NCBI GenBank assembly: GCA_905250005.1 | Contig: CAJNOH010000132.1 | Coordinates: 192,940 to 228,735 of the forward strand | DNA length: 35,796 nt | Direction of reading: 5' to 3' | Origin: Rotaria sordida | Taxonomy: Eukaryota | The notes under the pieces: generated by a model | Databases searched by the model: none | What the model was told of the DNA's origin: nothing | What the model saw: only the letters and a program-made list of their open reading frames with translations | Shown here: positions 6,706 to 34,243 of the stretch, one piece after another | Numbering within the stretch: position 1 is the first letter of the stretch | How the letters are laid out: each line of letters begins with the position of its first letter | Translations under genes and position numbers: made by a program

Positions 6706-6822
6706 GGGTGTGGGTGTAGGTGTGGGTGTGGGTGTGGGTGTGGGGTGGGTGTGGGTGTGGGTGTGGGAGAGGCTGCGACCCGGCCAGCCCCCCGCCCCAA
6801 CCCACACCCACACCCACACCCT
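6706..6822. repeat. GT-rich/AC-rich hairpin element, copy A: (GGGTGT)x10 + 30-nt GC-rich spacer + (CACACC)x3. Strong G-quadruplex motif on the plus strand.
   Basis: Read directly: ggtgtgggtgtaggtgtgggtgtgggtgtgggtgtggggtgggtgtgggtgtgggtgtggga...cccacacccacacccacaccc. The arms are reverse-complementary. Confidence 0.8.
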
Positions 6823-6832
6823 TACCTCGTAG

Positions 6833-7601
6833 GTCAGTTATCTTTTGCAAATGGCGAACATATTTGGCCGTTGCCATACTATCATTGGCTACATTTTGTC
6901 TAACACTTGCATCAGTCGACCGATGTTTACTAACATCAAGCTCAAGAAAATGGCGTAGATTAAGTCACATTTCAATTGCTCGCTACATTATAGTTCTAAG
7001 TGTTATTTTCTGGCTACTTTGTTTGTGTCATATAGTCGTTTATTATGATTTACAATTAATAGATGTGAATAATAATATATACATATGTATGCCTAAATCT
7101 GGTATTTATACAATGTTTATTGGTACATTTTTGCTTGGTTGTAATACAATTTTGTTCTATACACCCATGTTTGCTGCTAGTGTCATTACTCTCATACATG
7201 TATGTATGTCGCGACATCGTGTACGAAATTTTAGAAGTCGAAGAGCTAGATTAAATAGAGCTGATCGTCATCTAATTACGATTATGTTCATTCAAGTTGG
7301 TATAGGCATGATATTGAGCTTATTTCGTACTACTTTCTTAACATATAGTTTACTGTCGAGAGATGTATCGAAAAACATTTACAGAATGACAATTGAATCA
7401 TTTTTGGATCGACTTTCATTGATTATATTTTATTTGAATTTTGCTAAATCATTTCCTGTCAATGCTCTGACAAGTCCACTTTTCTTTGATATCTTTCGTG
7501 AACGTTTGATCAATATATGGAAACATTTCAAAAGAGGTATATCTTGTAAATTTGAAATTAAATACCGTTCAATATCTTTGAATGTAGTTTCATTAGTATA
7601 G
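6833..7601 (+). CDS. Rhodopsin-type 7TM receptor-like, 3'-terminal exon encoding TM3-TM7 and the C-tail; upstream exon(s) for TM1-2 not located
   Basis: Hydrophobic segments have GPCR spacing. TM3 ends in a DRC motif (LASVDRCLL, a DRY variant). TM4 has the conserved W (VIFWLLC) and TM5 the conserved P (FYTPMF). ICL3 is basic (RHRVRNFRSRRARLNR). TM7 reads FPVNALTSPLFF, a degenerate NPxxY. The AG acceptor at 6831-6832 is preceded by the polypyrimidine C-rich arm of repeat copy A. Stop at 7599-7601. Confidence 0.4.
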
Positions 7602-9180
7602 TTTTACGAATTCAAAACTAAGAATATTTTATTTTTAAAACCTTTTGTTAGTCGATATTATTGATAATGATTTTTTGTTTTTGATTTTATTATTAAGATC
7701 AGCAAAATTCCATAATTCGCAGTGGTCGATTACGTCAAGATGCATTTGACTTGCTCGTCTACAATCATTAATACTATCCATAATTATCTTGATCGGAGAT
7801 CAATATTAATCTTTTAACGTGATGTAAATATAATTGTAAATATAAATATCGTTTGTTTCAATATTGTATTGTATTAATCTCTTTAATAGATATTTTTCCT
7901 TTGAATAGATTGAAAAAGACGAATTTCACTAAATCTCTTAAAATTTTATTCTCATATCTAGAATTTAAGAAAAAAAAACAAACAATTCTAAGTAATTTTT
8001 TCTGATTAGATTGATTTACTATAGTTTCCTACATAGTCTTGTTGAAATTGAAAATTGATTGAATAAAAATAAAGATTTCTTCATGGACATACTCAACCAA
8101 AATGAAACACGAAATAAGAATTGAGCTACTCAATAGTTTATATTTTGGCAACAAGTTTTTCAAGTAAAACATGGTCATATTCAATAAAATGGCGCCGTAC
8201 GGCTGAATGAAATATATTCGGTTTAAAATGATTAATGTTCTTTGAAGAACAAATGAATCTTCCTGTAATACTAAATAAGAACTTTAATGCTTTCATAGCC
8301 AACAGTACAAATATGTACTACTTTTTTTTTTGGTCAGAGAACTATAATGAATTAGGAAAAAATAATTCTGGTAGAAAGAACGACAATAGTACATAGATGG
8401 GATTAATTTCTAGCTATTCTACAGAAAACTTAATTGATTATTAAAATCACTATCTGAATTTAAGCTAGTCGCTTGACATTATAGAAAAAAAACCAAAAAA
8501 TACATTGTTGTTAAACTTTTTTCCACCCTACCTCATGGACATATATACAATATTAATATAGCAGATACAACTTCAACTAGGATAATAATGACGAAAAATG
8601 TGCAAAGAAATTGAAAAATAACTAGATTACACATCATTCATTCTCATTTTTTTATATAGTGAACTAATAAAAGTAGTTTTGTACGGGTGCAGGCGTGGGC
8701 ATGAGCAGCACAAGGCAAATTTTTCAGACGAAGTAACTGTACATATTACTTTGTTGATACAGTGCTCAGGTTCATATGAGTAATGAAGTTAAACTTAAAT
8801 GTATATTCTACTATGTATTATTATCAACAAAGAGGACTCAGACGAGTCGAGCGAGTTACATCAAAATGGGTCAATTCGTCAACATCTTTGACCTACATTA
8901 TATAACATACTCAACTAACCAAACCGACATCTATGTTTTTACATTCACTCGGTCAGGTCTTTATAATCACGCATACGCACACCTTCAGCATCTCAGATCC
9001 TCACATAAAACATGCTTTACCTGGTAGAATTGAATGCTCTTATCACATCTACTCATATTTTCTTTTCTTTTTGCTATATCGTTTGGCCATAAAAAAACGA
9101 ACAACAAGTGTGTTATAATATTTCTTTTTTTGTCGTTCGATGCAGATATCAACAAAAAAAATGATCATATTTTAGATAAA

Positions 9181-10716
9181 ATGTTCATTCTTATCATATT
9201 GCTTACCTTAGTAACGATCTTCTTCGCAACATGTTTTGTTATTTACTGGAAATTAGTTCGTCCAGAGAAATATGTTTATGATGCACTACGAAGCCAAGGT
9301 GTTCCTGGCGAACCGTTTGTGCCAATTCTCGGTCAAATGCCTGAAATTCGTCGTGCTCGTGATAACAATGCTTTATTTGAATATCATGAAAATCTTGCAA
9401 AGAAACATGGTCCAATTTTTCTCATTGGCTATGGTCCATTGGTGCGTCTTGTCGTGCTCGAACCAGACTTGTTGGCCGACGTTCTTGGTCGATCACACAT
9501 CTCGGATTATACAAAGCCAAGAGATTTGACTACGGTACTAAAACCATTGATCGGTTCTCACAATTTATTAGTAAGCATGGGATTGGAACATGAGCGCGCT
9601 CGACAAATGCTTAATCCAGCATTTCATTTTGTTAATCTTCAATCGATGATTTCGATCATGGCTGATCGAACAGCTGAAGCTATTCATAGGCTTCTGACGT
9701 CTTCGACCAATCAACCGATCGATCTACAAAAAGAACTGAATTCACTTACGCTAACTATCATTGCTTCAAGTGCATTCGGTCAAGGTTTCGAAACCATTGT
9801 CGATGCTAAAGAGATCATGTCTCGAACATTTACCGAAGCACTGGAAGCGGTTATGTATCGAACAATGCGTATGGTCAATCTCATACCTTTTCTTGCTCGA
9901 TTACCGTTCTGGCGTAAACATATTGTTGACCGAGCTACTCGAATGGTGAATGGATTCGTTGATCAGATTATTAGTGATAGAAGACAGGGAAAATCAACAA
10001 GTTCTTGTGTCGGAGCCGATCTACTCGATCTCCTTCTTTCTGCAGTCGATGATCAAGGACAACCGTTTACAGATGAAGAGATCAAAGAACAAGCATTGAC
10101 TTTTGTTCTTGCTGGACATGAAACTACCGGCAATTTGATGGCATGGGTGATGTATGTTCTCATGACTCATGAACATGTTCTACATGCTTGTCGAGATGAA
10201 ATCGATCGCATTTTGCCCAATGGTTTAGAACCAACTTATGATCATCTCAGTAGTTTGTCTGTGTGCGAAGCTGTCATTTATGAAACACTTCGTCTCTATC
10301 CACCGGCGCCTCTATTTACGCGCTACTGTATACGAGCACATACAATCGGAAGTGAGGGTCATAAACAACTTCACATACCTGTCCATACGACTGTATGGTT
10401 AAACACTTATACACTTCATCGTCGAGCAGAATTCTGGCCTCGGCCACACGAATTCGATTATACACGATGGTTACGTGATCCTAGCACAGGTTTCAAGCCG
10501 AAACTAGCGCATCCATTTTGTTATTTGCCGTTCTCAGCCGGACCTCGTAGTTGCATCGGTCAACACTTTGCCTTGCTAGAAGTGAAAGTCATTCTATCGA
10601 TGTTTCTACAACGATGCAACATTCAGCTTGAACCCGGTCAGAAAATTACGCCAGACATTCGGATCACTATGCGACCCAAATATGGTCTTTTTGCCAAGGT
10701 AACACGACGCCAATAG
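9181..10716 (+). CDS. Cytochrome P450 monooxygenase, intronless, 511 aa from Met 9181; an in-frame upstream Met at 9034 would add 49 aa
   Basis: Continuous ORF with an N-terminal membrane anchor (MFILIILLTLVTIFFATCFVIYW) and Pro-rich hinge (VPGEPFVP). I-helix AGHETTGN, K-helix ETLRLYPPAP, PERF-like PHEFDYTRW, and heme-binding FSAGPRSCIGQHFA with the invariant Cys. Stop at 10714-10716. Confidence 0.9.
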   Translation: MFILIILLTLVTIFFATCFVIYWKLVRPEKYVYDALRSQGVPGEPFVPILGQMPEIRRARDNNALFEYHENLAKKHGPIFLIGYGPLVRLVVLEPDLLADVLGRSHISDYTKPRDLTTVLKPLIGSHNLLVSMGLEHERARQMLNPAFHFVNLQSMISIMADRTAEAIHRLLTSSTNQPIDLQKELNSLTLTIIASSAFGQGFETIVDAKEIMSRTFTEALEAVMYRTMRMVNLIPFLARLPFWRKHIVDRATRMVNGFVDQIISDRRQGKSTSSCVGADLLDLLLSAVDDQGQPFTDEEIKEQALTFVLAGHETTGNLMAWVMYVLMTHEHVLHACRDEIDRILPNGLEPTYDHLSSLSVCEAVIYETLRLYPPAPLFTRYCIRAHTIGSEGHKQLHIPVHTTVWLNTYTLHRRAEFWPRPHEFDYTRWLRDPSTGFKPKLAHPFCYLPFSAGPRSCIGQHFALLEVKVILSMFLQRCNIQLEPGQKITPDIRITMRPKYGLFAKVTRRQ

Positions 10717-12836
10717 ACTGTTTTCATCATTGATATTCAGGAAACATTCGAACTATCTTGTAATATTTATATTGACCGATCATGCTACCATGTAATACAA
10801 TGATATCAGTTTTATTAAACTGAACATCGATATAGTGTTTCTTTTTTAGCATTTGACTCTCCGCTATTTATTCATGTTATGTCTGTTTCGTCTAATTTGA
10901 TCTTAACTGACATCGACTTTGCTATTCTTTTGTCAAAAAATTTGCTTTTTTACTGAATAGAACCTATTATGTTTGATACTAAAAATATGCTTGGGATCCG
11001 TTGATAGGTATTTTACTTTGAGTTGAAGTCGAGTAAAATGAAATATTTAAATTCGATTAATGATCCTATGTGTTAGATTTTCATCTGTTTTAGATGAATA
11101 AATCTCGGATGATTGAGATGAATTCCAATAAGAATCAGTTGTCATTGTTTCTAACGTTTGTTGTTGAACTAGGAACACAGTTCTTGCACGAACTCTCTAC
11201 CCGCATACCTTCTAAGTGAGTGCAAACTGCACTGAAGGCAAGTTATTTTGGGGTTTTCTTCTTATTAATGTGTACAACTTGCTAAATAAAGGCTTAAAAT
11301 GGAAGATACATATTTGGATTTACGTGGACGTACAACGAGACATCGATAGGAATTTACAAAAAATTTGACTGTGAACTTATGTTTTCGGCTAGATTGTATT
11401 TGAACCAACAACCACAACTAAAACAAATGCAGAATTTTTTGAACTGAGTTTTACTTTGTTTCTCCGACAAACGAAGACTTAAGGGTATGGGTATGAATAT
11501 AACATAATTATTACAAAAGCTTTTTTATGTATTAGATATTCTAGCAATTAAAAAAAATTACACATATTTCCTAAAGTTTATCATACAAATGTTACATTTC
11601 AATGAACTTTTGATTCTGTGAAAGACTTGCTCATTTTTGACACACTGTTTCTTCTCAACTACATATGACCATTATACTTTGATTTAAAGGAGAATATTGA
11701 ATTTAGTTTTTAAATAAATTACAATAACTATTTAGACAAAATTAACAAAATAAGAAGATGAAAAAGAAAACGATAAGATAGCAAAGTTTTGAATTGTATT
11801 TTGAACCTGGCGGCCAGATCATGGTGTAAGAACACATAATATTCAATGATACGAACTGTAAACACTCTACTATATTTATAAATATAATGTTATTAGTCGA
11901 TCCAAATTAACATTACACTTTAAAATGTTTAATAGTTGAATAAAACATGTTTACGGTATGGTATGAACGCTAGGATGATATTAACTTTTGGTATATCTTA
12001 TATTTAAAAACTCTCTAAATTAAAATCTCTACTTGATTAGTAGAATTGATTTTAATTGTTTAACTATCCGCAAATCTATATAAGGTCTAAATATAGATTT
12101 AAGAAAAAACAGAAACAATATAGATTTTATTTACAAGCAAATATTTTCATCATACTAGAAATAATTTAGAATTATCCTAGTGAATGTAATGAGTTCAGGG
12201 TACTCTGCTATCAGTATGATACATGAATCTTTGGATGCTTCGCTACTGTAAGGTACTTTATGGGTTTTTAGCACTTGAATACAAAATGCTTCTAAATATT
12301 CAATCTACTAACATATTGAAAAATTTTTCATAGAATGCTATAGAAACTAGGAAGGTGCTTAGATGGATCGCTGGTAAGTAGGCATGTACTGAGACAATTC
12401 GCGGTGGGATACTCAATCAAGATCCTGTGACATACTGATAATAGAGTACCCGAAAGGATACCTTGCTGCCAACACACAAATAGTTTAATTTGAAGAAATA
12501 ATATTCTCCACTTTTTAAACTGAAGTTTATTAATACTGGCGATATAAAAAAGAAGATTCAACTTTTATTTTGATTTCGCTTAAATTTTCGAAAATGCATC
12601 AAAAAGTTTTTTTTTTCTTTCATCGATTTTACATATGTGACATGGTTATTATTTATCTTTTATATCAATAAACTTAAGTCTATTGCTTGATGAATAACTA
12701 TAATAGATATAATGTATCTGTTAAAATAACATTTATGTAATGAACATCAAACTAATCTCTTGATTGTTTTATTAAAATAAAAATTACAACAATAAAATGT
12801 ATTAATGAAAGTTTTGCATGTATTATTCGTTTAGTT

Positions 12837-13353
12837 CTAACTAGAAGCTTTATTTAGTTGTTGTTTGAGATTATACAATTGAGGACTATCAATGTAACTA
12901 TCACATGCATAGCAAAAGATTGATTGATCTGAAAAACTAAGACAAATGTTATGTCCAGTTGATTCATGATGATTTAACATGTGCTTTTGATGATAACGAG
13001 AACAACCAATCTAATTTGAATGAATTATATATATATATATATATATATGAATATATTTTGATTGTTAATGAATGACTTACATAATTACAGTTCTCATGTA
13101 AGCAAGCCCAATTCTCTTGTGTTTTATTACAATCAACACAAGGCGGTTGATGTTCACGATCAAATTGAGTCGATGAAAGTAATAATTCAACACGATCACC
13201 CACATGAGGACAATCATACTTTGGTACGATAGCAAATGGCTTTAGAAAAAAAAATCATATTCGATTTGATCAATATGCGATATTTTTACTTACACCTATT
13301 TGATTTACGTCATCCATCTGCTCGGAAGTTGTAGATTTATTTGATTCACTCAT
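12837..13353 (-). CDS. Small ZnF-UBP (BUZ/ubiquitin-binding zinc finger) domain protein, ~135 aa, 3 exons: 13353-13294, 13239-13081, 13010-12837
   Basis: Exon 2 encodes CPHVGDRVELL...CVDCNKTQENWACLHENCNY. Exon 3 encodes IGCSRYHQKHMLNHHESTGHNICLSFSDQSIFCYACDSYI. Together these match the ZnF-UBP consensus (C-x-H...C-x2-C...W-x-C-L-x-C...C-G-R-Y...H...H...G-H...C-Y-x-C), as in HDAC6, USP5 and BRAP2 fingers. Both donors are consensus GTAAGT, both acceptors AG, both phase 0. Confidence 0.7.
13026..13048. repeat. (TA)n microsatellite, about 11 units, inside intron 2 of the ZnF-UBP gene
   Basis: tatatatatatatatatatatat read directly. Confidence 0.9.
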
Positions 13354-13618
13354 TTTTATTCTCAATAATTAACTACGAGAATATGTGATTTAAGACGACT
13401 GAAACTTGTGCTTTTTATACACTCGATGAGATTTATTACTTGAGTGTGGTGAAAGATGAAGACACATGGCAAAGAAAATGATGCATATTGCATTATTATC
13501 AACTGAGTCATTGGCAACTCTATTTGACATTAGTTGTTTTTTATTCTACTCATAACACATAAGAGAACGAACAAAAAAAAAGTCACATAAATTTCTTCAT
13601 CTAAATACTAAATATGGT

Positions 13619-13661
13619 AGGGTGTGAGTGCAGGTTTTCTTCAAAGCTATGCTCACACCCC
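13619..13661. repeat. GT/AC hairpin element, copy B: GGGTGTGAG + 24-nt loop + CTCACACCCC
   Basis: Perfect 9-bp stem read directly. Confidence 0.6.
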
Positions 13662-14394
13662 TTCTAACTTGTGCTGCATTACATTCTGGATATCGAATCA
13701 CAGTTTTTCTTCTTTCTGATTATTAAGATAATTGATTCATAAGGACATATCAGAATTTTAATAAATAAATTGTCCTATACTATTATTATACATTACCAAT
13801 TGCATGTTTTAAAAATTTTATAAATGAATTCTACTTTGTTTTCTTTGCTTATTCATATGAGATAGTTTCATAATATATTGATCCTGATAGAGAAAATGAC
13901 TTGAAAGCCTTGAAACAATCAGAATTTCATAAAAATTGCAAAAAAAAAGAAAAAGTTTTTTTTCTGATATGAATTTTTATAATCTGAATATATTTTCTAA
14001 CTTGTTTTTGATTCCATAAATAAGATCTTGTGTTTTTTAATAAATCTTTCTCCAATATTTCTAAGTTCAATTCAAGTGTTTTATCACAAGTAAGATGAAC
14101 GATTTATCATTATAATCATGTATTTTAGGTTCTCATAAGATGTTTTCTAAATAAATTTCCGAGAAAAAAGTATCGAAAAATGGTTTTCTTTATGGCAATA
14201 GCTTCAAAAATCGACCGAGAGTTCTGACAAGAATACTGATGATTATTGAGCGATTAAATCTAAAAATCAGAGGCTTGCATAGCTTTGTAGACCTTCCATT
14301 GCTGGTTCGGATCCACATGTGATGATTGAAAACTCACTATAGTCACTTCACAGAGTGCATTGATATTCAAAAAGGGCGATTGACAACCTTAAAA

Positions 14395-14545: not shown

Positions 14546-16282
14546 ATTAGATGTAGGCATCGTCCTTAGCCTTGTATTTTTCTTTGTTTTCACTCTCATC
14601 ATCAGCTCTGTAATGCCGCGGAAGCAACTGTCTGAAGTGCAACATTCATGTTACAAAATTTGTCGTATTTTTCTAATGAAATCAAACTTGTTGAAAAATG
14701 TAAGTAAGCAAGAATTTAGAAGAAGAATCAATTGAGAGATATAAGAATCAATAGAAAATTAAATAATTTTTTTTTCTGCATGTAAATTACTTAATCAAAA
14801 TTTAATTTATTTATCTTCAACTAAAAAAGAACTTTGATAATCGTCAAATTCAAAATTCATTCATTATCAAAGTCAATATTATCTAGCGTAATTTTTCTCG
14901 ATTTTATTGAACGGATATAAGATAGAGGGTAATGCAAGAGCGAAACAACATGGATAAATTTATGTGTGGTTATTGAATTATATAATTTAACGCACAGTAA
15001 GACATGTTCGTTTCTAATTGGTTGGCTTTTGGAATCATCTGCAAGGTTTTTAATCGAAATAAAAAGATAATCATCAGTTTGAAGCCATATATCTTTTTTT
15101 TCTTCCTGTAATAATCAACATTATCTATTTGTTTGTTGTCACATTTCTCAATTTTACTGAATAATTCTTATTCATTTCTCTGCGCCTGTATTCTATGGGT
15201 TTTATTTATCTACGAATAGGAATGTAACAATGTGGATTTATTGATCACTGGCTACACTTCATAGGCAGATGAATTCCAATAATCGTTCAAAATGAAAGAT
15301 ATCTGGATTTCTAGTATTTCTTTTTTTTTGAGCATAGAGGTGTTCGTGTCAATATTTTGTGTAGACACCAATACCGTGCATCTCTCTCATATACAATGGA
15401 AAGAAATTTTTTTCCAAGATTCATTAAAATCTAAATATTTACTGAAAAGGACAATCAAAAATTAATTGTAACTTAGATTGTTTATTATCAACCGGCATGA
15501 AAAAATTTGGTAAACTATTTTAGCAAAATAAAGTCTAAAATATAGACTAGTGGAATGATCGTGTACAAATTGTGAACTATCCGTCGTACGCTCAAATAAC
15601 TATGACATACCTGTAATGAATGCACATCAAACAAATTTATATTGAAGAAGACAGTACAATGGAAGATCATAGACAATACAACTACAAAAAAAGATCAACA
15701 TTTACCTTCAATGTTTCCATGTGACTTAATAAATATATAATTCTTAACCTGATGAGATGCTTAGTGAGTGAGAAATCAAATGCGGATGTATGAATTGAAC
15801 TGTGAAGAAGTATTTTCAATAATATGTTATAACTCGCTTTTGTTTCATGACTTTGTAAATAGATTCGAGTTTATTGTTAAACGAAAAAATAATCATAAAA
15901 GTCTTTCGTTTTTCAGTGTTCAATGCACAAATATATAAAGCCCTATTCGTGTAAGACGATTCCATCGCTCGAAGAATTTTACCTATGAATGATGACTTTG
16001 TTCACTTGTTTTTTGAGGCACTTGCATCCTTGAATTATACATGGAAACCATGCCATGACACAGTCTCTTTCGTAACGACAAAGTCACAGTGCTTCATCTT
16101 ATTCTTATCCAAATTTATTCGCAAACAAAGACTGCCGGGTAACTTTTGGACCACCCTACATATTAAACTTGACCTTTGAAATTCTCATGTGATTAATTAA
16201 TGGATTTTTTTTGTGAGAAATTGCGCTCTTTACTTACTTACTTTGTTATGATATGTATCAGAGGTGCCCATAGAGCAGTGCA

Positions 16283-16385
16283 ATGTGTAGGTGTCGAGCG
16301 TGAGTATGGATGTCGTCGAAGAGAAGACTTTCACTTACACAAGCATCAACACTAACACCGCATGCATACATTCACACTCTCATGC
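16283..16385. repeat. GT/AC hairpin element, copy C
   Basis: GT-rich gtgcaatgtgtaggtgtcgagcgtgagtatggatgtcg, then a spacer, then AC-rich cacttacacaagcatcaacactaacaccgcatgcatacattcacactctcatgc. Confidence 0.5.
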
Positions 16386-21591: not shown

Positions 21592-21680
21592 GGGGTGTGG
21601 GTGTGAGTGAAGAGATGAAATTCACATCCACCCCCACAGGCATCCACCCTACCCATACCCCACAACATCATCCACATCCT
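21592..21680. repeat. GT/AC hairpin element, copy D
   Basis: ggggtgtgggtgtgagtgaagagatg aaatt cacatccacccccacaggcatccaccctacccataccccacaac. Confidence 0.6.
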
Positions 21681-24600: not shown

Positions 24601-25664
24601 ATTTTACGATGTGCTTCGAGAAAAATCGTTCTCTGTGACTATCAATAATAACGCTGGATTGCAAATGCATCAGATTGTGACGACAGAACGCAAGAGAAAG
24701 ATTCACGCATTTTCCTTTGTGTGCATGCAGAATGTAAGAGAATGTCAGTATTGAAAGGGTTAATATTGCAATGCACAAGCACACGTTTCTTTTCATTGTA
24801 TTACAAAGTTAAATAAAAGAAGAAAAATACAAACAAAAGAAAAAAATAGTTATACATAAAAATTTTTGCACTTTTTGCTTGTCGTACATGCAAAAAGATA
24901 TTCGTTTTGAAAAAAAAGCGAGTTTGAAAAGGATAACATTCATAAACTCGTTTTTTTAGCGAAAAAAACTGAAATTTTTAGTGTAAATAGCGCGCAGTTT
25001 TAGGTATTAAATAAGGTTTCCTCGATTGACAATGTGTAATCTTTTAATAGCATTGTTAAAACATTTTGTAATTTCTCGGAGTTGAAATTGAAATCTTAAA
25101 AAATAATATCTCAGAGTCGGAATCGGGATCATGAGAAAGAAATTTTTCGGAGTCAAAAAAAAAAGTTGACTTCACACGTCTCCAGTAGAAATGCAGTAAT
25201 ACCGATTCTGACCAAGTTTGATTCCAGTTTTAGAGCTGGATTGGTCGTACTTAAGTGTTCTTGAAACTAAACTTGATTTGGGATCAGAACTGAAGCCCAC
25301 CAATTTCGGTTGGCATCGAATGAAATGCGTCAGGACTGAATTTCTAGACAAAGTTCAAAAAACGAGTGTAAGTTGATGAAAAGAGAAACGTCTCATATGC
25401 CTATATCTAAGGTAACGGACAAAATGTATTAGTGCCCTTGTGTATAAGTCAAATGATCTGAACTATTATCTATTTCAAAATAGAAGAATCGTGAGCAGTT
25501 TTTTGAAGAATTTTTAATAGAAATGATATAGTGAACTGCAATTTTTACTATTGGATGAAAAGATAACAATGCGTCGAATCGTATATTACATAATTTTTCT
25601 GGTAAGTTTTCTTAGGGTTTCCAATATAGTTTTTTTGTTTTTTTTGGAAACCAATATATTACCC

Positions 25665-26770
25665 CTAGAGATGGCACTTTCATCTTCTCTCTAAAAGGAA
25701 AAAGAAGTAAAGAGTGAGTTGAAAGATTTTCTTTTTTGTTTTTCGTGTTATGCAAGAGTGAGCCGCATTTCCTTTGCTGTTATATAAAGAGAAAAGTAAA
25801 AGGAAAGTAAAAACAGGAAAGCGAAAGAAAGTAAGAAGAAAATGAGAGAAAATAAAGAGAATGGATTAAAAAAAACGAAATAAGCCAAAAAGAGAGTAAA
25901 ATAAAGGTCAAAGAAAACAAAAAAAAAAGTGAGAGTCAGGCCTGCACGGTGCACGCTCATAAGCGCTTATATGAGCGTGAATATTTATCCTGTTTCGAAT
26001 ACGTGAGTGAAGTTACAATTACTCATCAGTTACATTATCAACTCATTAGCAACGAAAACTTTGCAAGTTTGTCAAAAGAAAGGTAGTTTTCTAAAAGTAA
26101 CAATTTTTTTTATAATGTTTGACCAAAAACAATGAGGCCGAGGAATCCAAATCTCTAGTCGATTTCTCAAAATTTTGAGTTTGATTCTTTTTTTACTAAC
26201 AAAAGCTTTTTTTAATTAGAAAAAAATCATTTTCTTCACAATAAAAATTTTTCTAGTATAAAAATAAATTTTTGTTGCTAAAAAACTTCTTTTTTTTATC
26301 TAGTGAAAAAATCAAACTCAAAATTTCTAGAAATCAATTACAGATTCAGATTTCTCGGTCTCTATTGTTTTTGGTCAAACTTTAAAAAAAAACCGTTGTT
26401 TTTAGGAAACTGCCTTTTCTTTTATGAACTCACAATGCTTCCATTACTAATTAATTGGTAACATGACTGACGAGTAACTATAACTTCCCTCTCCTATTTA
26501 AGACAGAATAAACGTTCACGCTTACATAAGCACTTATGAGCGTGAGCTGTACAGCTCTGACTTTCATTTTCTTTTTTGTCCCCTTTGACCTTTATTTTAC
26601 TTGCTTTTTGCTTATTTCGTTTTTTAATCTTTCCTCATTTCTTTCTTTCGCTTTCCTTTTTTTTACTTTCCTTTTACTTTTCTCTTTATCGAACAGCATG
26701 GGAAATGCGATTCACTCTTTCATAACACGAAAAATAAAAAAGTAAAAGTGACATCTCTAACTGCCCCCAG
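25665..26770. repeat. ~1.1 kb near-perfect palindrome (long inverted repeat/foldback) centred near 26245. The outer arms (25665-25990 and 26505-26770) and the inner segments (26121 with 26350, 26161 with 26330) are all mutually reverse-complementary.
   Basis: The reverse complement of 26701-26749 (cttttactttttttatttttcgtgttatgaaagagtgaatcgcatttcc) matches 25715-25772. gtgcacgctcataagcgcttatatgagcgtgaatattta matches the reverse complement of aacgttcacgcttacataagcacttatgagcgtgagctgtac. gaccaaaaacaatgaggccgagg matches the reverse complement of ctcggtctctattgtttttggtc. tagagatggcac (25668) matches the reverse complement of gtgacatctcta (26750). Confidence 0.85.
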
Positions 26771-27034
26771 TCATCATAACGAATTTTTGATTTTGAAGAG
26801 CGCATTAGAACCGCTGATCGAAGATCTGAAAAACTGTGCAAATTCTAGGTATATTACTTTAATCGTTCAAGAGTTATCGACATTTACTTTAAGCTTCGAA
26901 CCGTTCTTTCGAGAAAATTAGATGGAATTTTGACTTTTTTTCTGTATTTTCATGAAAATTTGCTTTGCCAATTCATCCAAATTCTCAATCGTTTTTGAAG
27001 AAACTCAAGAGAACTGAAAAAAAAAACTAGAGAA

Positions 27035-27185
27035 AAGTCTGTAATATCCGATTCAATGCATCATCATCTTCACTTTTCAATAGGGAAAATTCGCATCATT
27101 CTATCGTGTTCCTATAACAAGTTATTGAAAAAATACTCACGTTTTTTTGTTTTTTTTTCGAAATGAAAAACAGTCATGCTATGTG
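27035..27185. repeat. Dispersed repeat, copy 2; the homologous copy is at 14395-14545. It lies immediately downstream of the palindrome.
   Basis: See the copy 1 evidence. Confidence 0.55.
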
Positions 27186-27319
27186 ATCACGTGTGGCTGC
27201 TATCATATTCCTTGAGATCCGGTTCTGAACGTCCAAAAAATATGACGATACGTTATATTACTAGAAGCATGTAGAAATAACGTATGAGTCATGCAGCTAT
27301 CACATAGCATATTCAGGCT

Positions 27320-27398
27320 GAGTGAAAGTTGGTGTTGGATAATGTGAGTGGATGGGTGTGAATGAAGATAGGCTTTTCATCAACACCCTCACACATAC
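27320..27398. repeat. GT/AC hairpin element, copy E
   Basis: gagtgaaagttggtgttggataatgtgagtggatgggtgtgaatgaagatagg ... cttttcatcaacaccctcacacatac. GGGTGT pairs with ACACCC and ATGAAGA with TTTTCAT. The 5' arm shares the block gtgaaagttggNggtgtt with copy F. Confidence 0.6.
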
Positions 27399-27893
27399 AA
27401 GATATGTTTATCTATTTGGTCTTTAAGGAAAATATGATTAACATGGGATGAGTTTCGTTTACGAGTAGAACAGTTTCATCATGTTTAACATTCTAATCTT
27501 CCAGAGACTATACTGAAAGATTTTTCAACAATAATAAAAAGGGAGCTATTTTTATTGTGAAAAATCTGGAAAAAAGAAGATGTTATAACTCCGCAAGATC
27601 GATTTATTTTGATCGAGAATCTAAAATATATGGAAAATTCCTTCAAGTCTACAACCATCAGCGGACTGATACCTATAATAAAATTGTAACCTAGATAAAA
27701 TTTATCATTTTGGAAATTTACAAGCATATACAATATTATTGTTGAGAAGCAACTGAGTAGTTATGACGAACAATTTGAAGAAGACACCACGTCCATCGGA
27801 AGCAAAGCCCAAAGTAATACAAGTCTTAGCTAGATTTATATATTCTATTCTTTCATTTTCTGTAACTTTCTTGAGAATGACTCAAAAACAAAG

Positions 27894-30800
27894 ATGACAA
27901 CTGTTGACGATGATAATTTCGAAGAAGCACCAACTTGGGCTGCCGTCATTACTATACTCAGCTTTGCTTTACATACTCCAATCGGGTGGTTTCGTGATTT
28001 TCTTCGTTATATTGGCTTGGAAGAGAAAAAAACTGTTATAGATCCAAGTCCAAAGGTTCCAAAATACCTTATAGAAAGTTAATTATTAATGTTTTATTTT
28101 ATAGGATTTTGTACCACTTTATCAAAGTTTCGAGTGCTTCTATACGCGTAATTTCTATACACGTGTTCGTGATGCATTCAATCAACCGATTGCAAGCATA
28201 GCTGGGCCTATAATCGATGTTATGGAACGTGTTTCAGATGATTACAATTGGACATTCAGGTGAGTTTAAATGAGAAAGTCAACAACGAAAAAGAAATAAA
28301 CAAACTCATATGTTAATTTTCATTGATATAGATTTACTGGCAGAAAAATACCAGCCATTAATATGGGTTCATACAATTATTTAGGTTTTGCTGAAAATAG
28401 AGGTCCATGTGCAGAACAAGCTATAAGATCAATTGAACAGTATGGAACTACAACAGGTAGTACTCGTCAGGAATTAGGTATGTTATTCTTTTTATAAATT
28501 GAATCAATATCAATTTATGTATTCATTTTTATATTCATAGGAACTCAACAGTATATGAAAACTCTTGAAGAAATGATGGCCAATTTTCTAGGTGTTGAAG
28601 ATTGTATTGCTTTTGGTATGGGCTTTGCTACAAATGCATTGAATATTCCAGCAATAATGGGCGAAGTATAAAACTATCATCTTGTTTTTGTTTTTTTCAT
28701 CAAAAAAATGTTTTGTCATAGGGTGATCTTATACTAAGTGACAAACTTAATCATGTTTCAATTATTCTTGGTGCTCGATTATCTGGCGCACATATTCGCA
28801 CATTCAATCATAATAGTATGTATCTATATTTAAATTGACCAATTTTGATTCAAATTGATCTTTAAAGAAAAAAATATTTCTCATTTTTCTTCATTATATC
28901 AATGACTTTTAGACATGAAAAATTCTCAATTTGAAATCTAAATACGCATATTAAACTTAGGCAAATAAAAAAAAATATTTTTACCTTGAAAATAAAGTGT
29001 GATTTTTACTCGTCTTATGAATAAAATTCTATTGTTAGTATTTAAGTTTTGTAGTTTGAGTATGAATATGAGTGTAGGTGAAAGTTGGAGGTGTTAGGTA
29101 TTGGTTTGGGTGAAGACAAGACTCACACTCGTACCCAACATGGTTTCAAGTTATGCCTATGTCGCTGCATTTCTGATTTCTATCAGTTTATATCAAGAAA
29201 AATCGAATGTGTAAATGTTGAACTCAAAATTTGTTCAACGAAAGTGTTCTTTCAAGTTTATAAAGATTTCAAAAAACTAGGGTTTCTGAATTCTTTCTAA
29301 AATATATGTGTCTGTTGAGTATTTAATATCTTGAAAACGAAACATTCGTTTCGACGAAAAATTTTCGTGTATATTAGTTAAAAATATATACATATCTTTG
29401 CGATAAAAATAAATACAAAAAAAAAGTCGCTATACATTTCAAGAATGATTAGTAGTTAGATTATGCAAAAATTCAGAATTCTAAAGTCGAGAAAAATTCA
29501 TAATAGTGTAATCAAAAAATTATGCTGCCATTGTTTTCGAATGTATTACATTATGAATAAGAAAATCCTCTGTAGGCATGTTTCAAGAATCGAATGATTT
29601 ATTGGTTGCATATTCCACGATAACGCAATCCGAAATCTTCAAAACCTATAGATAAAAAACTGGAAACTCTGTAGTCCAACCAAACATAATTCTATAGTAA
29701 ATATAAATAATATGCAGTAAGATAAGAAAATCAAAAAGTTTTTTTTTCAATGATAAACTGTGAAACTAATATTTCAGTCTACTTATGCGAGTAGTATTTA
29801 AGTATATGTATTAAGCTATTGTTTTTAATATCATTATTTTCATTTGATGTATCACAATATAAATCTAGCTTGATAGATAACTATATATAGTAACTCGAGA
29901 TGGTACTAAACTAAGTGCTTTTGGTACTGATCTCAATAACACTTTTTTCCACCGGAATTATGTTCTAACTGATATAATTTAGAAGATAATTCACTTAAAA
30001 TCATAGAATATTAAACTATTATTTTGAGTTGCGATTGAGAAATTTTGTTTTTGTGACTTCGATCATGATCTAGTCTCATTGATTGAAATCGATACTAAAA
30101 TTTGATTTCACACATCTCTAATACTAATACTATAATCACGACCAGATGAATATATATTAACATCACAACCATATCATTAATACATATACTTTGATAACAA
30201 TCGTACGGATGGATCGATATATCAGTTTTTCAGGTTACTATTAAAATAAATTTATTAATTCTATTTTTTCGTTGCATATTATTCATATTAGGTTTCTTAA
30301 AAAAATAAAATCATGTGTTCTCTTATCATACATAATTCTATAGTGTCGAGATCCATTGTAGCATTATGACTTTACTATTATATTCTGAGTGAAGGAGAGA
30401 TTCATGTTTCTTGCTATGTAATTCAACACTCGTTACCAATCGTGTTTCTCAAAAGATTCGACATTGTGAAATCAATGAAAATAAAAAAAAACCATCGTAA
30501 TACGGAATAGACAGTGGCTTTAAAAACATGTCCGAGACAGACACAATGAAGTTAATTTCGAATTCCAGACCCTAGTCATGCAGTCGAAAAATCTGCAAAA
30601 ATTGGGCATTGTCGGGTACATTCATTAGTACTGAGTCTATTACCAGCCTTTTATTTATTTATCCAATAGTATATTTGAGTAGAGCATGAAAAATTGCATT
30701 TAATCAATATCGTTTCATTTAAATTCAAGAGTTTTCAGTGCAATAAGAATATAGGAAAGAGATATCACACACACTTATCCTGCCTTCATCTTGGTCATAT

Positions 30801-33147
30801 TTTATTTTTATAAATCACTCAATCTTCCTAATAGTTCCTATTCATCCGAATTCAGATAGAACTATTAAAGTAAGACCTAAAGAATGCTTTTCCGAACTTT
30901 TTATGGAGTAGTCTATGTGAGAAGTGAATCGAAAACTTGATGACGGTCGAAAAACTAACTATAGATAAAATTTGCCTCCTGGTTTAGCATTAAATTTCTG
31001 GAATTTGTTATTGTCAAATTTCTGATCAACGTAGCCAGTTTCATACTTCTAGCCGTTTTGTGAAAAGTGAATTTTGAAAAAAAAAATTTTTTCAAAATCC
31101 TGAAGACAAATAGAAGAGTCATATAATTGTTTTTCGTGAAAATATCGTGATCCAACAATATTATTTTTTACAAAGAAAACGACAGTATTGTGAAAGTCTT
31201 CTGTTTTTGAATTTTATATCGTTTTTCCTAATGAAATTTATTGATTCGGTTTTTAGATATGCAAGATTTGGAATATCAATTACGTGAAGCCATTGTTCAT
31301 GGTCAACCAAGAAAATTTCGGCCATGGAAAAAAATTTTGATTATTGTCGAAGGTGTCTACAGGTAGAACAAATAATTTTTTTCTATTTACTTTTGTTATT
31401 ATTGATTATATGGAATTTTAGTATGGAAGGTTCATTATGTAAACTGCCTGAAATAGTTGCCCTAAAGAAAAAATACAAAGCCTATTTGTATGTTGATGAA
31501 GCTCATTCAATTGGTGCTGTTGGTTCACGTGGTCGTGGTGCTGTCGATTATTGGAATGTTGATCCAAAGGATATTGACATACATATGGGTACATTTACGA
31601 AAAGTTTTGGCTCTGTCGGAGGTTATATTGCTGGTAAAAAGGTATGAGATATTTCTTTATATTAAATTGATCGAGTTTGATTTTTGTCATAGTCTTTGGT
31701 CGATCATATTCGAATTCATTCTCATTCTACATGCTACTCATCGAGCATGTCGGCACCTATCGCCTATCAAATCATTAGCGCACTTAATATTATCACGAGT
31801 CGAGATGGAACTGATGGTGGTAAGACATTATATTTCAAGTATTTTAAAGAAAGAAAACTACAAAATGAACTATTTGAGATATTAATGATGAGCTCTTATA
31901 CAATAAGAATTATCTTAACCTTTTCTTTCTTAATGGTTACCTATAGGTACCACTTTTTTTGAAGTTTTGTTCTTTTGAGCTATAAGACATATAGAAACTT
32001 ATTTTATATCAACAATCCGAACATAACATTCTTCATAATACATTTTATTTGCTATTCAGACAAACATACTATGGTATGGCATGTGCTAGAGCCGTGCCAT
32101 AAGAGAGTATTAACGCATAATTGATCTAACAAATTGGTATTGAACTTCTTCTTTATTTTCCAAATGATTATCAATATGATATATTTATGAACTAGTTAGA
32201 AAAAAAACAAAAATACTTGAAAAGAAACACGAACGCGAGATGAAAATATCTGAACAATATCCAAAGAAGAGAATGTTTCGAAACTAAGTAAAGGTAAAGG
32301 AGAGGATACATATATGCGTGTCGTACTTGTGGGTGTAGGTGTGGGTGTAGATGGAGTGAAAAACGACACTGAACACTCCAAACACAGTGACATCAATATT
32401 CCATACTCACACTGACACTCACACATACAGCTTGTGTCCATTTTGTTGTAACTTTCACAAGTATTTCTATACAATAAAATTTATTGAACATTTAACACAT
32501 TAACTATATTAACACTTAACTGATGTGATTCAAACTTTTCATGTGTATATTATAGACCATTATGATCACAATGCTAAACGAATTTCAGTTCTAGACCTTA
32601 AAATTTAGCCATGAAAATGAAAAGATTAAATGTATTTGATACTATTTTTAGGTCAAAAACGTATTCGACAATTAGCTCGTAATGTTCATTATTTTCGTCG
32701 TCAACTTGTCGATATGGGCTTTATCGTATATGGACATAGAGATTCGCCGGTTGTTCCAGTGATGCTCTTCATACCGGCTAAGGTTGGGTATGAAATTATA
32801 CTCTTTCTTTTCTTTTTGTTTCGTATGTTCATTGTTTTATTATATAGAGCTGTCAATCGAGAAATGTTGAAACGTGGATGCGCTGTAGTGACTGTAGGTT
32901 TTCCGGCTACTAAGGCTAACGAATCACGTATACGATTTTGTCTATCGGCCAGTCATACTAAAGAAATGCTCGATTATGTAATAGAGAAGATATCTGAAAG
33001 ACATAGTTGAACGATTTTATTTTTCTTTTTTCACAGGTTTTGAGTGTTTTCGATGAAGTGGGTTATCTTACTGGACTTCAATGTTCAAAACGAAATCCAC
33101 AACGTCGTTTAGTTGAACTCAATCCTGAAGACTATCTTGAAGATTAA
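27894..33147 (+). CDS. SPTLC2: Serine palmitoyltransferase catalytic subunit (LCB2/SPTLC2-like), 506 aa, 11 exons: 27894-28055, 28105-28259, 28332-28477, 28541-28665, 28722-28815, 31257-31362, 31422-31641, 31693-31819, 32652-32787, 32848-32986, 33037-33147
   Basis: Exon translations align throughout to SPTLC2: [134 protein letters not shown]...[27 protein letters not shown]. The PLP-lysine motif GTFTKSFG is present. Then [51 protein letters not shown], and the C-terminus [10 protein letters not shown]...LNPEDYLED. Every junction is GT-AG with consistent phase. Intron 5 is 2.4 kb and intron 8 is 0.83 kb; the others are 50-70 bp. Confidence 0.9.
29058..29145. repeat. GT/AC hairpin element, copy F, in SPTLC2 intron 5
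   Basis: gagtgtaggtgaaagttggaggtgttaggtattggtttgggtgaagacaag actcacactcgtacccaacatgg. Confidence 0.5.
32328..32430. repeat. GT/AC hairpin element, copy G, in SPTLC2 intron 8
   Basis: gtgggtgtaggtgtgggtgtagatggagtg aaaaacgacactgaa cactccaaacacagtgac...ccatactcacactgacactcacacatac. Confidence 0.6.
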
Positions 33148-34153
33148 TATATTTTATCATTTTAATACGTATTATTTATTGACAAGAAACTATTTTTTTT
33201 TCCTTACATGACAAATGAAATCAACGTTAATCTCGTGATTCATTTCGACGATCGCTCTTCGCGTATTCTCCGCAATTTTTAATGCCACATTCATATTATC
33301 TCTTTTAATCATTTTTTTTTCATATGCATTTGAACAACCTTCAATAAAACCTATTCAAGGAAAAATCTTAGTTGAGCAAACTCTAGTGTTATTCTTAGCG
33401 AAACATGTACAATAAGATGACTTTAAGAATCAACTAAGCTCATTGATAATATTCTACAAATGATCGATTTTATTTTCTATATTCATTGATGATATTGTAT
33501 AACTTTAACGAGATATTGCGCAGCAGTCACATATTTTTCTTGCATTAAGTGACCAAGAAAGACTATTTTAGCATGGAATTTTCTTGCATAAAGTTATATT
33601 GATAAAGTTCACAAATTTCTTGATGATTTCTTTATTGACATTCTCAGTAATTATAATTTTACGAACTCATTCGTACAGTAACTCATTTTTTTTATCGAAA
33701 CTTTGACATGTACAATTTACTTGAAAATTTCAACAAGAAGATATTAATAAAAGTAAACCACTTCATGGCATATCTCAAGAAAATCTTCAGCTGAAAAAGC
33801 TGAGCGTCTATATATGACAGTGAATATAATTGTGAGTGCACGAAATTGTATGAATAGTGCGAATGTAGATGTAATGGTAAGGCAGTAGTGCGATCTACGA
33901 GCAGTAGTCGATACATATCTGATCGGTAGAAGAAATGGTAAATTCAAGCGAAAATGTACCATTTAGATCCAAAAATGCCTACTTTTAGGTATTTCTAAAA
34001 CTAAGATAGGTAACAATCAATGCAGTAGAAATTTATGTTTGATGTCAGTGAAAAAATGGTCAAGGCAAGAGAAAATATTGGTGGTCATTATAGAATAATG
34101 ATGAACCATAATAGAAAAATAACTTAAAAAATACGAAAAATGATTGTCACTCT

Positions 34154-34243
34154 AGGGTGTGCATGTAGGGTAGGTGTGGATGTGGGTGTGAGTTGATTTT
34201 CTCTCAACCCACACCCACACACAACCACAACTACAGCCACACC
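34154..34243. repeat. GT/AC hairpin element, copy H: ~40-nt arms and a 7-nt loop; at least 16 bp pair contiguously from the loop with one mismatch
   Basis: gggtgtgcatgtagggtaggtgtggatgtgggtgtgagttga ttttctc tcaacccacacccacacacaaccacaactacagccacaccc. Confidence 0.75.

Follow-up and report, generated by a model that had tools for sequence, protein, structure and literature searches.

We analyzed a 35,796-nt stretch of DNA (the window) from the bdelloid rotifer Rotaria sordida; it matches two R. sordida assemblies at 98.4% identity and carries a P450 that is 90% identical to the P450 of Rotaria sp. Silwood2. Further features include an MVP locus, an N-terminally truncated GPCR and SPTLC2 (Table 1). 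A first-pass annotation had picked out eight GT-rich/AC-rich sites, and at 8/8 of these the + strand does show a GT-rich tract, a short spacer and an AC-rich tract; we added a ninth. The nine elements lie within 29 kb, about one per 4 kb, and all copies avoid exons. As that annotation stated, two of them, copies 6 and 7, lie in SPTLC2 introns.

Table 1. Elements and associated features of the window, with wrap-around scores of the arms
Feature	Position	Strand	Composition and setting	G-arm score	C-arm score
Ninth element (weak, head-to-head; unbiased scan)	5558-5617		GGGTGTGGAT, 11-nt spacer, CCACTCCAACATTCATACC...	18	18
Copy 1	6705-6826		G arm 6705-6775 (~11 near-perfect GGGTGT units), GC-rich spacer, C arm 6791-6826	116	49
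N-terminally truncated GPCR (7tm_1) reading frame	6828-7601	+	Starts at right edge of copy 1		
Copy 2 (short, old)	13619-13662		GGGTGTGAGTG, spacer, CTCACACCCC	17	<16
Copy 3	16284-16386		Decayed G arm 16284-16313, then decayed AC arm	22	<16
Solitary telomere-like G tract	18086-18121 (scan: 18086-18102)	+	GGGTGTGGTTGTGGCTGGTG, without clear C partner	24	
Copy 4	21588-21685		Unequal arms: G arm 21588-21609, C arm 21623-21685	29	38
Copy 5	27320-27402		Degenerate G arm, short C arm; ~490 bp upstream of SPTLC2 start codon (27894)	19	17
1152-bp segment	29019-30170		Absent from homoeologous SPTLC2 copy L018; copy 6 lies 40 bp from left edge		
Copy 6	29058-29140		Degenerate G arm, short C arm; within 2.4-kb SPTLC2 intron	21	<16
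707-bp segment	31919-32625		Absent from L018; non-autonomous transposon of ~703 bp plus duplicated TTAA; copy 7 internal		
Copy 7	32322-32430		G arm 32327-32358, C arm ~32401-32429; within 826-bp SPTLC2 intron	38	23
Copy 8	34155-34247		G arm 34155-34193, 13-nt spacer, C arm 34207-34244; ~1 kb downstream of SPTLC2 stop codon	44	48

The key to this family, which had gone unrecognized in the first reading, is the hexamer TGTGGG, the published telomeric repeat of bdelloids (PMC7943196, PMC8494291, PMC13564844). The arms consist of (TGTGGG)n and its complement (CCCACA)n together with one-base variants of the unit (TGTGAG, TGTAGG and TGTGGA), and in a k-mer comparison of 20 elements the non-canonical k-mers that recurred among them were again one-base variants of TGTGGG. 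Across the window, we counted 99 occurrences of the six TGTGGG phases on the + strand, where 15.4±5.0 were expected (~6-fold), and 49 of their complements, where 12.5±4.7 were expected (~4-fold). We scored the arms by wrap-around alignment to (TGTGGG)n, using 10 shuffled windows as a control, in which the best score anywhere was 14-17. Copies 1, 4, 7 and 8 are strong on both arms; in copies 2, 3, 5 and 6, which are short or decayed, one arm has a borderline score. Hexamer counts and wrap-around scores thus exceed those of shuffled sequence, in keeping with the original view of a recurrent, non-random feature. The elements are built, as an ITS is, from the organism's own telomeric repeat, and they lie internally with unique DNA on both sides, flanked in all nine cases by genes, introns or intergenic DNA. 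We conclude that the bdelloid telomeric repeat makes up the tracts.

Without exception, the elements of the window are head-to-head, with their arms in the order G>C: whichever strand is read, (TGTGGG)n points 5' to 3' at the center and leads, across a short non-telomeric filler, into (CCCACA)n. Among adjacent tract pairs in 187 kb of bdelloid DNA, 12 were G>C and 1 was C>G, with neither G>G (0) nor C>C (0), an excess of head-to-head arrays such as characterizes a fusion ITS. This bias was not found in non-rotifer GGGTGT repeats: 526 kb of control contigs holding (GGGTGT)3 gave 37 G>C, 28 C>G and 160 same-strand pairs. Because a hairpin or cruciform forms equally well in C>G order, the G>C polarity points to extension of 3' ends. 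The elements are 44 to 245 bp long, and their arms are tandem arrays that span 10-160 nt between elements and are unequal within them (for example, 70 vs 36, 22 vs 63 and 162 vs 61 nt). An element's own arms were no more complementary to each other than to the arms of other copies. Spacers were unrelated, the best spacer-to-spacer local score of 20 falling inside the shuffle range of 17-28, and outer junctions were abrupt, beginning at GGGTGT. The initial proposal that the copies descend from one mobile or RNA-coding element is therefore not upheld: what the copies share is the telomeric repeat, their arms cross-pair and are unequal, and their spacers are unrelated. Nor is the extra block reported as common to copies 5 and 6 (then E and F) special, with a local score of 25 vs 17.3±2.9 in shuffles and 29-33 for other pairs.

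In comparisons with related loci, the elements are associated with apparent structural breakpoints and with missing DNA. Copy 1, the youngest-looking copy, adjoins the truncated GPCR. When the intact Silwood2 GPCR was searched against the window with tblastn, only residues 83-355 matched, the first 82 codons being found nowhere in the window, and the Pfam 7tm_1 match starts at position 56 of the 260-position profile. Codon 83 falls at the right edge of copy 1; the supposed exon acceptor there ('ttacctcgtag') encodes LPRR in the intact orthologue. The left flank is the MVP locus, which is unrelated to the GPCR and lies on a different contig in Silwood2. Copy 1 thus appears to separate non-contiguous loci rather than to interrupt one locus. 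It is absent from the Silwood2 orthologue, which implies that it is younger than the species split. Silwood2 has a different G>C element at the point where homology to the MVP-upstream region of the window runs out; in window coordinates this point is 58 nt proximal to copy 1, and the sequence beyond differs. Homology to the Silwood2 MVP locus L010 ends exactly at the G-arm junction of the ninth element. The apparent breakpoint at L010 13292 adjoins an N and may be a scaffold join.

Two further elements lie in DNA missing from the homoeologous SPTLC2 copy. The 1152-bp segment that holds copy 6 also contains, at 29701-29815, an inverted duplicate of 30171-30288, the flank next to it, and its junction has a microhomology of just 2 bp, AT. 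The transposon that contains copy 7 is flanked by a TTAA duplication, where L018 has a single TTAA, and has piggyBac-like ends, CCTTTTC... and ...GAAAAGA. Copies 1, 6 and 7 and the ninth element are each absent from related loci within a larger change: a rearrangement (copy 1), a replaced segment (ninth element), a patchwork insertion (copy 6) and a transposon interior (copy 7). All informative comparisons were complex in this way, and none held a clean empty site or a clean break re-sealed with the element alone. In several cases homology ends 58-200 bp from the element instead of reaching it, and the alignment may simply break off there because the intergenic DNA is only 70% identical.

Several copies are shared between species or haplotypes. 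Silwood2 has copy 2 as well, at the orthologous position (L001 15858-15900), and the flanks align on either side. Copy 3 lies ~100 bp past the 3' end of an E2 homology block, and G>C elements occupy the equivalent place in Silwood2 (L014) and Silwood1 (L017). In the three species the block stops about 70-200 bp short of a G>C element, and the DNA beyond is unrelated among the three loci. Copies 2 and 3, which are common to several species, are both short or decayed. All three R. sordida haplotypes (the window, L008 and L009) carry copies 4-8, copy 4 differing in L008 and L009 by point substitutions only. We found no such elements in two loci of another bdelloid (L007 and L016; 42 kb).

The elements are probably the telomerase-extended 3' ends of a break or fragment, bearing short neotelomeres that were then end-joined. 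The starting point would be a double-strand break in the DNA, or a pair of free fragment ends, to each 3' end of which telomerase would independently add a short neotelomere seed of 10-160 nt. Seeds too short for end protection would be filled in and end-joined, in some cases with filler DNA and often with a partner other than the original one, and the scar would decay neutrally, chiefly through single-base changes. Indirect signs of 3'-end synthesis are the G>C polarity, the independent, unequal arms and the abrupt outer start at GGGTGT. Synthesis of the tracts by telomerase, their sealing by end-joining and a later role as fragile sites are our inferences. As scars of broken ends that were capped with telomeric repeat and joined, the elements may mark old chromosome breaks.

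In vertebrates, telomerase inserts telomeric repeats at break sites (s-ITS or TERC-ITS; Nergadze, Giulotto and colleagues; PMC2246262, PMC7215372, PMC8537989). Like these, the rotifer elements are short internal arrays of the species' own telomeric repeat without target-site duplication, and several are part of DNA that related loci lack, at times accompanied by deletions, filler, inversions or inverted duplications. Unlike in vertebrates, where head-to-head pairs were found at 3/41 TERC-ITS loci and attributed to a second telomerase acting across the break (PMC8537989, PMC7215372), the head-to-head form dominates here (12/13 adjacent pairs), the elements are dense, several lie at junctions of non-contiguous loci and no clean empty site was seen. 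On this reading the elements would be a variant of telomeric-repeat insertion that is rare in vertebrates and the dominant form here. In irradiated Adineta vaga, telomeric repeats occur at deletion breakpoints, and transient neotelomere 'scars' have been proposed (BIHER model, PMC13564844); for bdelloid subtelomeres, PMC2861651 refers to interspersed telomeric repeats (Gladyshev & Arkhipova 2007 as cited there). The A. vaga scars involve the same repeat, the same animal group and the same idea of transient telomerase capping. The tracts in these reports differ from ours: they were either added to one side of a fresh breakpoint or lie with uniform polarity beside Athena elements. In the literature searched we found no description of fixed, paired, head-to-head tracts in gene-rich DNA.

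More tentatively, it is quite possible that bdelloid telomerase routinely seeds both ends of a break without blocking end-joining, and that head-to-head TGTGGG/CCCACA pairs form a genome-wide fossil record of breaks and fragment fusions, re-used as fragile sites. Were this so, synteny breakpoints, gene truncations and captured DNA would be flagged by such pairs, and in a group of animals noted for surviving genome shattering the history of such desiccation- or radiation-driven events could be read directly from sequence.

The elements might instead belong to a MITE-like or foldback transposon family whose terminal inverted repeats (GGGTGTG...CACACCC) are telomere-like by chance, which we think improbable. 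Such a family would have constant termini, as seen in the outer junction N/GGGTGT and in AGGGTGTG, present in 10/20 elements, and an invariant G>C order is also expected from a fixed terminal repeat. The region is rich in transposons, including a hAT element, a TTA-flanked MITE and a TTAA-flanked MITE, and the ciliate TBE and Tec transposons, whose ends are telomeric repeats, show that telomeric termini are possible on transposons; TBE ends, however, are arranged oppositely, with the C strand at the 5' ends and the element body between. The rotifer elements resemble MITEs, foldback transposons and TBE/Tec as short inverted-repeat structures dispersed in non-coding DNA, but they have neither a shared interior nor a similar length, and their arms are variable tandem arrays that pair no better within an element than between copies. 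The target-site duplications and insertion polymorphism expected of a mobile element were both lacking. Inspection by eye of the flanks of copies 1, 2 and 8 and of six Silwood elements revealed no target-site duplication, copy 8 having only a trivial TA/TA, unlike the real MITEs nearby, which show TTAA and TTA duplications. Copies 4-8 showed no presence/absence difference among the three R. sordida haplotypes, whereas these haplotypes do differ in two real transposons of the same region. The want of a clean empty site and the apparent position of copy 1 between two loci likewise speak against transposition.

We compared DNA folding of the eight copies with that of dinucleotide shuffles. Three of the eight folded far better than shuffled sequence (z = -4.6, -3.6 and -6.2 for copies 1, 2 and 8; z <= -3.6), and the other five did not (copy 3, 0.0; copy 4, -0.7; copy 5, -1.8; copy 6, +0.6; copy 7, -1.8). 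The hairpin or cruciform potential noted at the outset is thus real, but it goes beyond composition in these three copies only, which, with arms that pair equally well across copies, argues against a palindromic element family. The strong folding, the absence of copies from exons and the retention of copies 2 and 3 at the same intergenic positions across species, which would also fit conserved function, could indicate small- or hairpin-RNA precursors or selected DNA elements such as telomere-repeat or CACCC-box protein sites, insulators or terminators. We nonetheless consider such functional hairpins unlikely. The copy 2 orthologues pair in a shifted register without compensatory changes, and within species the arms have accumulated substitutions at approximately the background rate (about 1.8%) regardless of pairing. 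As to the suggested miRNA or hairpin-RNA identity, no Rfam family matched at the gathering threshold; relaxing the cutoff brought up dozens of unrelated miRNA models on both strands, which is generic hairpin matching. Selection on hairpins would also leave the scarcity of C>G pairs and the breakpoint positions unexplained.

Head-to-head orientation, with the G strand toward the center on both strands, is the signature of a fusion ITS such as human 2q13 (PMC8537989, PMC7215372), and the region resembles bdelloid subtelomeres in containing truncated genes and transposons (PMC8494291, PMC2861651). We give little credence, however, to the elements being fusion relics of true chromosome ends, or old telomere positions in a former subtelomere. 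Nine elements in 29 kb would require nine chromosome-end fusions, far too many for whole chromosomes. Elements occur between neighboring genes, twice within introns of a single intact gene and once within a 703-bp transposon. Their flanks are ordinary genes and their arms just 10-160 nt, on the order of tens of nucleotides, in contrast to the long degenerate arrays with subtelomeric flanks of fusion ITS. This explanation merges with that of end-joined neotelomeres if 'chromosome end' is taken to mean 'healed fragment end'.

Chance GT/AC microsatellites, low-complexity noise or assembly artefact, to which the weakness and poor folding of copies 3, 5 and 6 and the commonness of GT-rich simple repeats in eukaryotes might be thought to point, are highly improbable and already largely refuted, since the enriched unit is the hexamer TGTGGG and not TG, its wrap-around scores are above shuffles and its order is 12:1 in rotifers vs 37:28 in controls. 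A G array should also not be joinable to a C array by overlap assembly, and independent assemblies of R. sordida (L008 and L009), Silwood2 (L001-L004, L010-L012 and L014) and Silwood1 (L017) show the same structures again.

All eight sites reported in the first-pass annotation carry a GT-rich tract, a spacer of 7-45 nt and an AC-rich tract on the plus strand. The repeat unit of the arms is a hexamer, not the dinucleotide TG, and in copy 1, the clearest case, about 11 near-perfect GGGTGT units are followed by a GC-rich spacer and then by (ACACCC)n. The hexamer (TGTGGG)n is the published telomeric repeat of bdelloid rotifers (PMC7943196, PMC8494291, PMC13564844). The arm consensus originally proposed, GGGTGTGAGTG / GTGTAGGTG-like, is this same repeat with single G-to-A changes, and the most widely shared non-canonical k-mers in a set of 20 elements drawn from three Rotaria species were the variants TGTGAG, TGTAGG and TGTGGA. 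Counted in all six phases, TGTGGG occurs 99 times on the plus strand (15.4±5.0 expected from Markov shuffles) and its complements 49 times (12.5±4.7 expected), with the matches concentrated at the noted sites. We scored the arms by wrap-around alignment to (TGTGGG)n, for which the top score anywhere in a shuffled window was 14-17, and this also revealed a ninth element and a solitary tract.

Telomere-like elements, their wrap-around alignment scores, and other features of the window and of the loci compared with it
Feature	Sequence	Coordinates	G-arm score	C-arm score	Details
Copy 1	window	6705-6826	116	49	
Copy 2	window		17	<16	
Copy 3	window		22	<16	
Copy 4	window		29	38	
Copy 5	window		19	17	
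Copy 6	window		21	<16	
Copy 7	window		38	23	
Copy 8	window		44	48	
Ninth G>C element	window	5558-5617	18	18	
Solitary G tract	window	18086-18102	24		
G>C element	L010 (Silwood2)	2871-3113			G arm 160 nt, spacer 18 nt, C arm 60 nt
Element with GC-rich string	L010 (Silwood2)	20600-20790			
G>C element	L011 (Silwood2)	7511-7569			
Two tandem elements	L017 (Silwood1)	19083-19237			28 nt apart
MVP gene	window	3454-5458			
P450 gene	window	9181-10716			
E2 block	window	16499-18597			
MITE-like insertion	window	18862-19286			425 bp
Inverted repeat	window	25871-26625			320 nt, 74% complementary, arms 115 nt apart
SPTLC2 gene	window	27894-33147			
Segment with copy 6	window	29019-30170			
Inverted duplication	window	29700-29846 and 30143-30289			
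piggyBac-like element	window	31919-32625			~703 bp
SPTLC2 and P450	L018 (R. sordida)	248-5678			
Extra DNA	L009 (R. sordida)	4439-7997			~3.5 kb

Elements are symmetric in that either strand reads the (TGTGGG)n-like G arm first and the complementary C arm second (G>C), and a C-then-G order would fold equally well. We counted adjacent tracts, lying within 120 nt of each other, in 187 kb of bdelloid DNA comprising the window and loci of R. sordida, Rotaria sp. Silwood2, Silwood1 and another bdelloid. The pairs were G>C in 12 cases and C>G in one, with no G>G or C>C, and the sole C>G pair arises where two elements stand in tandem in the Silwood1 locus L017 and is just the gap that separates them. 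By contrast, 526 kb of non-rotifer metagenome contigs containing (GGGTGT)3, matches that are mostly non-rotifer DNA of about 48% GC and served only as a control, gave 37 G>C, 28 C>G and 160 same-strand pairs. The 12:1 ratio in bdelloids against mixed orders in the control shows that the invariant order belongs to these rotifer genomes. Read as telomeres, the G>C order sets two G-strand 3' ends against each other, a head-to-head arrangement.

Further G>C elements are present in other Rotaria loci, at non-orthologous sites, and none was found in two loci (42 kb) of the other bdelloid. The tandem head-to-head pair of Silwood1 precedes an SPTLC2-like aminotransferase gene by ~300-400 bp, a placement that resembles that of copy 5 of the window. 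The two were treated as non-orthologous: they have a 13-mer in common, but their flanks lack homology.

Genes recognised in the window are an MVP fragment, a GPCR, a P450 (90% identity with its Silwood2 counterpart), an E2 enzyme and SPTLC2, and comparison with related loci placed several elements at or near structural breakpoints. Across the GPCR/P450 block (window 6822-13731), the Silwood2 locus L001 shows collinearity with the window, and the GPCR reading frame of L001 is unbroken. In the window, GPCR homology sets in only with residue 83, at base 6828, where copy 1 ends on its right side; codons 1-82 are absent from the whole window, and the Pfam match begins at profile position 56. Copy 1 thus appears to truncate the GPCR gene. 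The first-pass annotation had placed this copy against an exon acceptor, but 'ttacctcgtag' is part of the coding sequence rather than a splice acceptor. DNA to the left of copy 1 is part of the MVP locus, which in Silwood2 lies on other contigs (L010-L012) with neither GPCR nor P450 within 10 kb. Because the two loci are apart in this sister species, copy 1 is the junction of two loci in the window assembly. Homology with L011 extends to about window 6645, where a separate G>C element stands in L011 and the sequence beyond differs, and the G arm of the ninth element starts exactly at the end of homology with L010. In several cases homology ends at a distance of 58-200 bp from the element, where intergenic DNA of 70% identity may simply stop aligning.

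Two other points in L010 were not taken as breakpoints. Its divergence from L011 at 7978 is a transposon insertion, with the same string, CACATAGACCAAGAGACGCAGTAGAGGGCGAGAAGCTCAAA, found twice (7943-7980 and 8955-8990, the second match at about 8960); this unclassified repeated element explains that divergence point. Position 13292 adjoins an N, may be a scaffold join and was not counted; single N characters stand at 7943 and 13293. The MVP gene of the window is apparently an N-terminal fragment only, of ~500 codons, and its homology to the Silwood2 locus, where the annotated product is 294 aa, ends at 3454. In L016, from another bdelloid, ~3.4 kb of extra DNA separates blocks aligning to window 4118 and 4151.

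Copy 2 is present at the orthologous Silwood2 site with both flanks aligned and is therefore older than the species split. Four independent Silwood2 assemblies (L001-L004) end their contigs ~250-290 bp past this orthologue, near 16115-16145, which suggests that a repeat that breaks assemblies, or heterozygosity for a structural difference, lies just past that point. The E2 block is common to Silwood2 (L014) and Silwood1 (L017). On the 3' side of E2, all three loci have a G>C element, and homology stops ~70-200 bp short of it; past these elements the three are mutually unrelated, L014 and L017 included.

Over window 17504-35796, identity to two R. sordida assemblies (L008, L009) is 98.4%, which assigns the window to this bdelloid rotifer species, and copies 4-8 are present in three of three R. 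sordida haplotypes or isolates. As first reported, two copies lie in SPTLC2 introns; these introns measure 2.4 kb and 0.8 kb, and the remaining ones ~40-60 bp. L018, a divergent R. sordida SPTLC2 copy (homoeologue) with 84-86% identity to the window, lacks a segment holding copy 6 and an inverted copy of adjacent flank, with only 2 bp of junction microhomology. The left copy of the inverted duplication in the 2.4-kb intron is the reverse complement (~70%) of flank homologous to L018 614-731, which suggests a templated patchwork insertion. L018 also lacks a piggyBac-like non-autonomous element, bordered by a TTAA duplication, in an SPTLC2 intron, and has a single TTAA at its site; copy 7 lies inside this element and may mark where the parent transposon underwent an internal deletion.

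Outer junctions of the elements are abrupt, at GGGTGT, and lack target-site duplications. The junction is AGGGTGTG in 10 of 20 elements, and GGGTGT is preceded by A in 14 of 18, a bias that is weakly significant once ambiguous T and G cases are dropped. GAAGA/TCTTC, a motif chosen post hoc, occurs in 8 of 22 spacers (window, L001, L010, L011, L014, L017) against 2.0 expected. This motif and the AGGGTGTG junction might reflect how telomerase starts and stops; for the motif, read-through into telomerase RNA was considered as a source. By eye only, a GC-rich string in the copy 1 spacer resembles one in an L010 element.

The simplest account of the elements is extension of break ends by telomerase on both sides, followed by end-joining and neutral decay. 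It draws on their telomeric composition, invariant G>C polarity, independent arms of unequal length, abrupt duplication-free GGGTGT junctions, filler spacers and association with structural breakpoints. Telomerase would add repeats to the 3' ends on either side of a break, or to the ends of two free fragments; end-joining would seal these short telomeric seeds, and the joined scar would decay neutrally. An age pattern fits this origin: copy 1, which the Silwood2 orthologue lacks, is near-perfect, and copies 2 and 3, found across species, are short or decayed. Beyond telomerase authorship and the joining pathway, we infer that elements may be fragile later, since the same block ends bear elements in several species. 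In none of the loci compared did an element stand as the sole insertion within DNA that is otherwise collinear.

A functional RNA or DNA hairpin is disfavoured, although the persistence of copies 2 and 3 across species is compatible with a function. In DNA folding against dinucleotide shuffles, hairpins exceeded composition in copies 1, 2 and 8 (z -4.6, -3.6 and -6.2) but not in copies 3 to 7 (0.0, -0.7, -1.8, +0.6 and -1.8), so the hairpin family first described holds only partly. When every G arm was paired with the reverse complement of every C arm, own-arm pairing did not exceed cross-copy pairing: the copy 1 G arm with the copy 8 C arm scored 55, higher than the 50 and 40 reached by own-arm pairs, and six copies scored no higher than the cross-copy mean. 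Pairing therefore stems from telomere-like arms rather than copy-specific palindromy, and the reading of each copy as a genuine inverted duplication was therefore rejected. A few variant positions are shared in copy 8, and its A-rich/T-rich flanks pair, but this signal is of low complexity and not decisive. Substitutions in copies 4-8 accumulate at about the background rate irrespective of pairing. An Rfam search returned no matches at gathering thresholds, and no hammerhead or other known RNA was found in the spacers. With the cutoff relaxed to E<=10, copy 1 and one Silwood2 element drew matches, on either strand and well short of threshold, from dozens of unrelated miRNA models, as is normal for any long hairpin. 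A functional hairpin would also leave polarity unexplained.

A transposon family bearing telomere-like ends is likewise disfavoured. The elements have variable tandem arms and lack duplications, polymorphism and common interiors: the top spacer pair scores 20, inside the shuffle range of 17-28, and the extra block attributed to copies 5 and 6 proved no more similar than other copy pairs. Genuine MITEs in the window do have duplications and polymorphism. One MITE-like insertion, with ends AACCCCCTCCC... / ...GGGGGGGGCT and a TTA duplication at its flanks, is absent from R. sordida L008, which has a single TTA, making it a within-species insertion polymorphism. Fusions of true chromosome ends cannot account for the elements, as nine events in 29 kb would be needed, intron sites among them. 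Plain GT/AC microsatellite noise or an artefact is excluded by enrichment and scores above shuffles and by recurrence in independent assemblies.

Bdelloid rotifers survive desiccation and radiation that shatter the genome into many pieces, and the elements may be a trace of how such pieces are rejoined. Telomeric repeats at repaired breaks are of a kind already known. Short interstitial telomeric sequences of vertebrates are inserted at break sites (PMC8537989, PMC7215372), and 3 of 41 TERC-ITS loci are head-to-head, ascribed to a second telomerase acting across the break (PMC8537989). Two-sided action is thus rare in vertebrates, whereas the head-to-head form dominates here. A 2026 study of Adineta vaga proposes transient neotelomeres that leave 'scars' (PMC13564844), of which the Rotaria elements look like fixed, evolutionary versions. 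In the literature searched, we found no description of a dominant head-to-head form, of such a density of elements in gene-containing bdelloid DNA, or of their coincidence with synteny breaks. The signature is simple, two short telomere tracts face to face. If the proposed origin is true, a census and dating across bdelloid genomes would map historical breakpoints, test whether elements coincide with rearrangements, gene truncations and the capture of foreign DNA, and allow desiccating and non-desiccating species to be compared. Two-sided telomerase action at breaks could then be a normal outcome in another animal lineage, and the history of bdelloid genome breakage could become readable from sequence.

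Gene order and a further transposon also differ among the R. sordida copies. In L018 a P450 with 70% identity to that of the window lies 1.8 kb downstream of SPTLC2. The window has its P450 17 kb upstream of SPTLC2, separated from it by the E2 gene and four elements; gene order is reshuffled between the two copies. A long inverted repeat in the window looks like an internally deleted hAT element, and at its site L009 has extra DNA encoding a zf-BED / hAT-dimerisation transposase.
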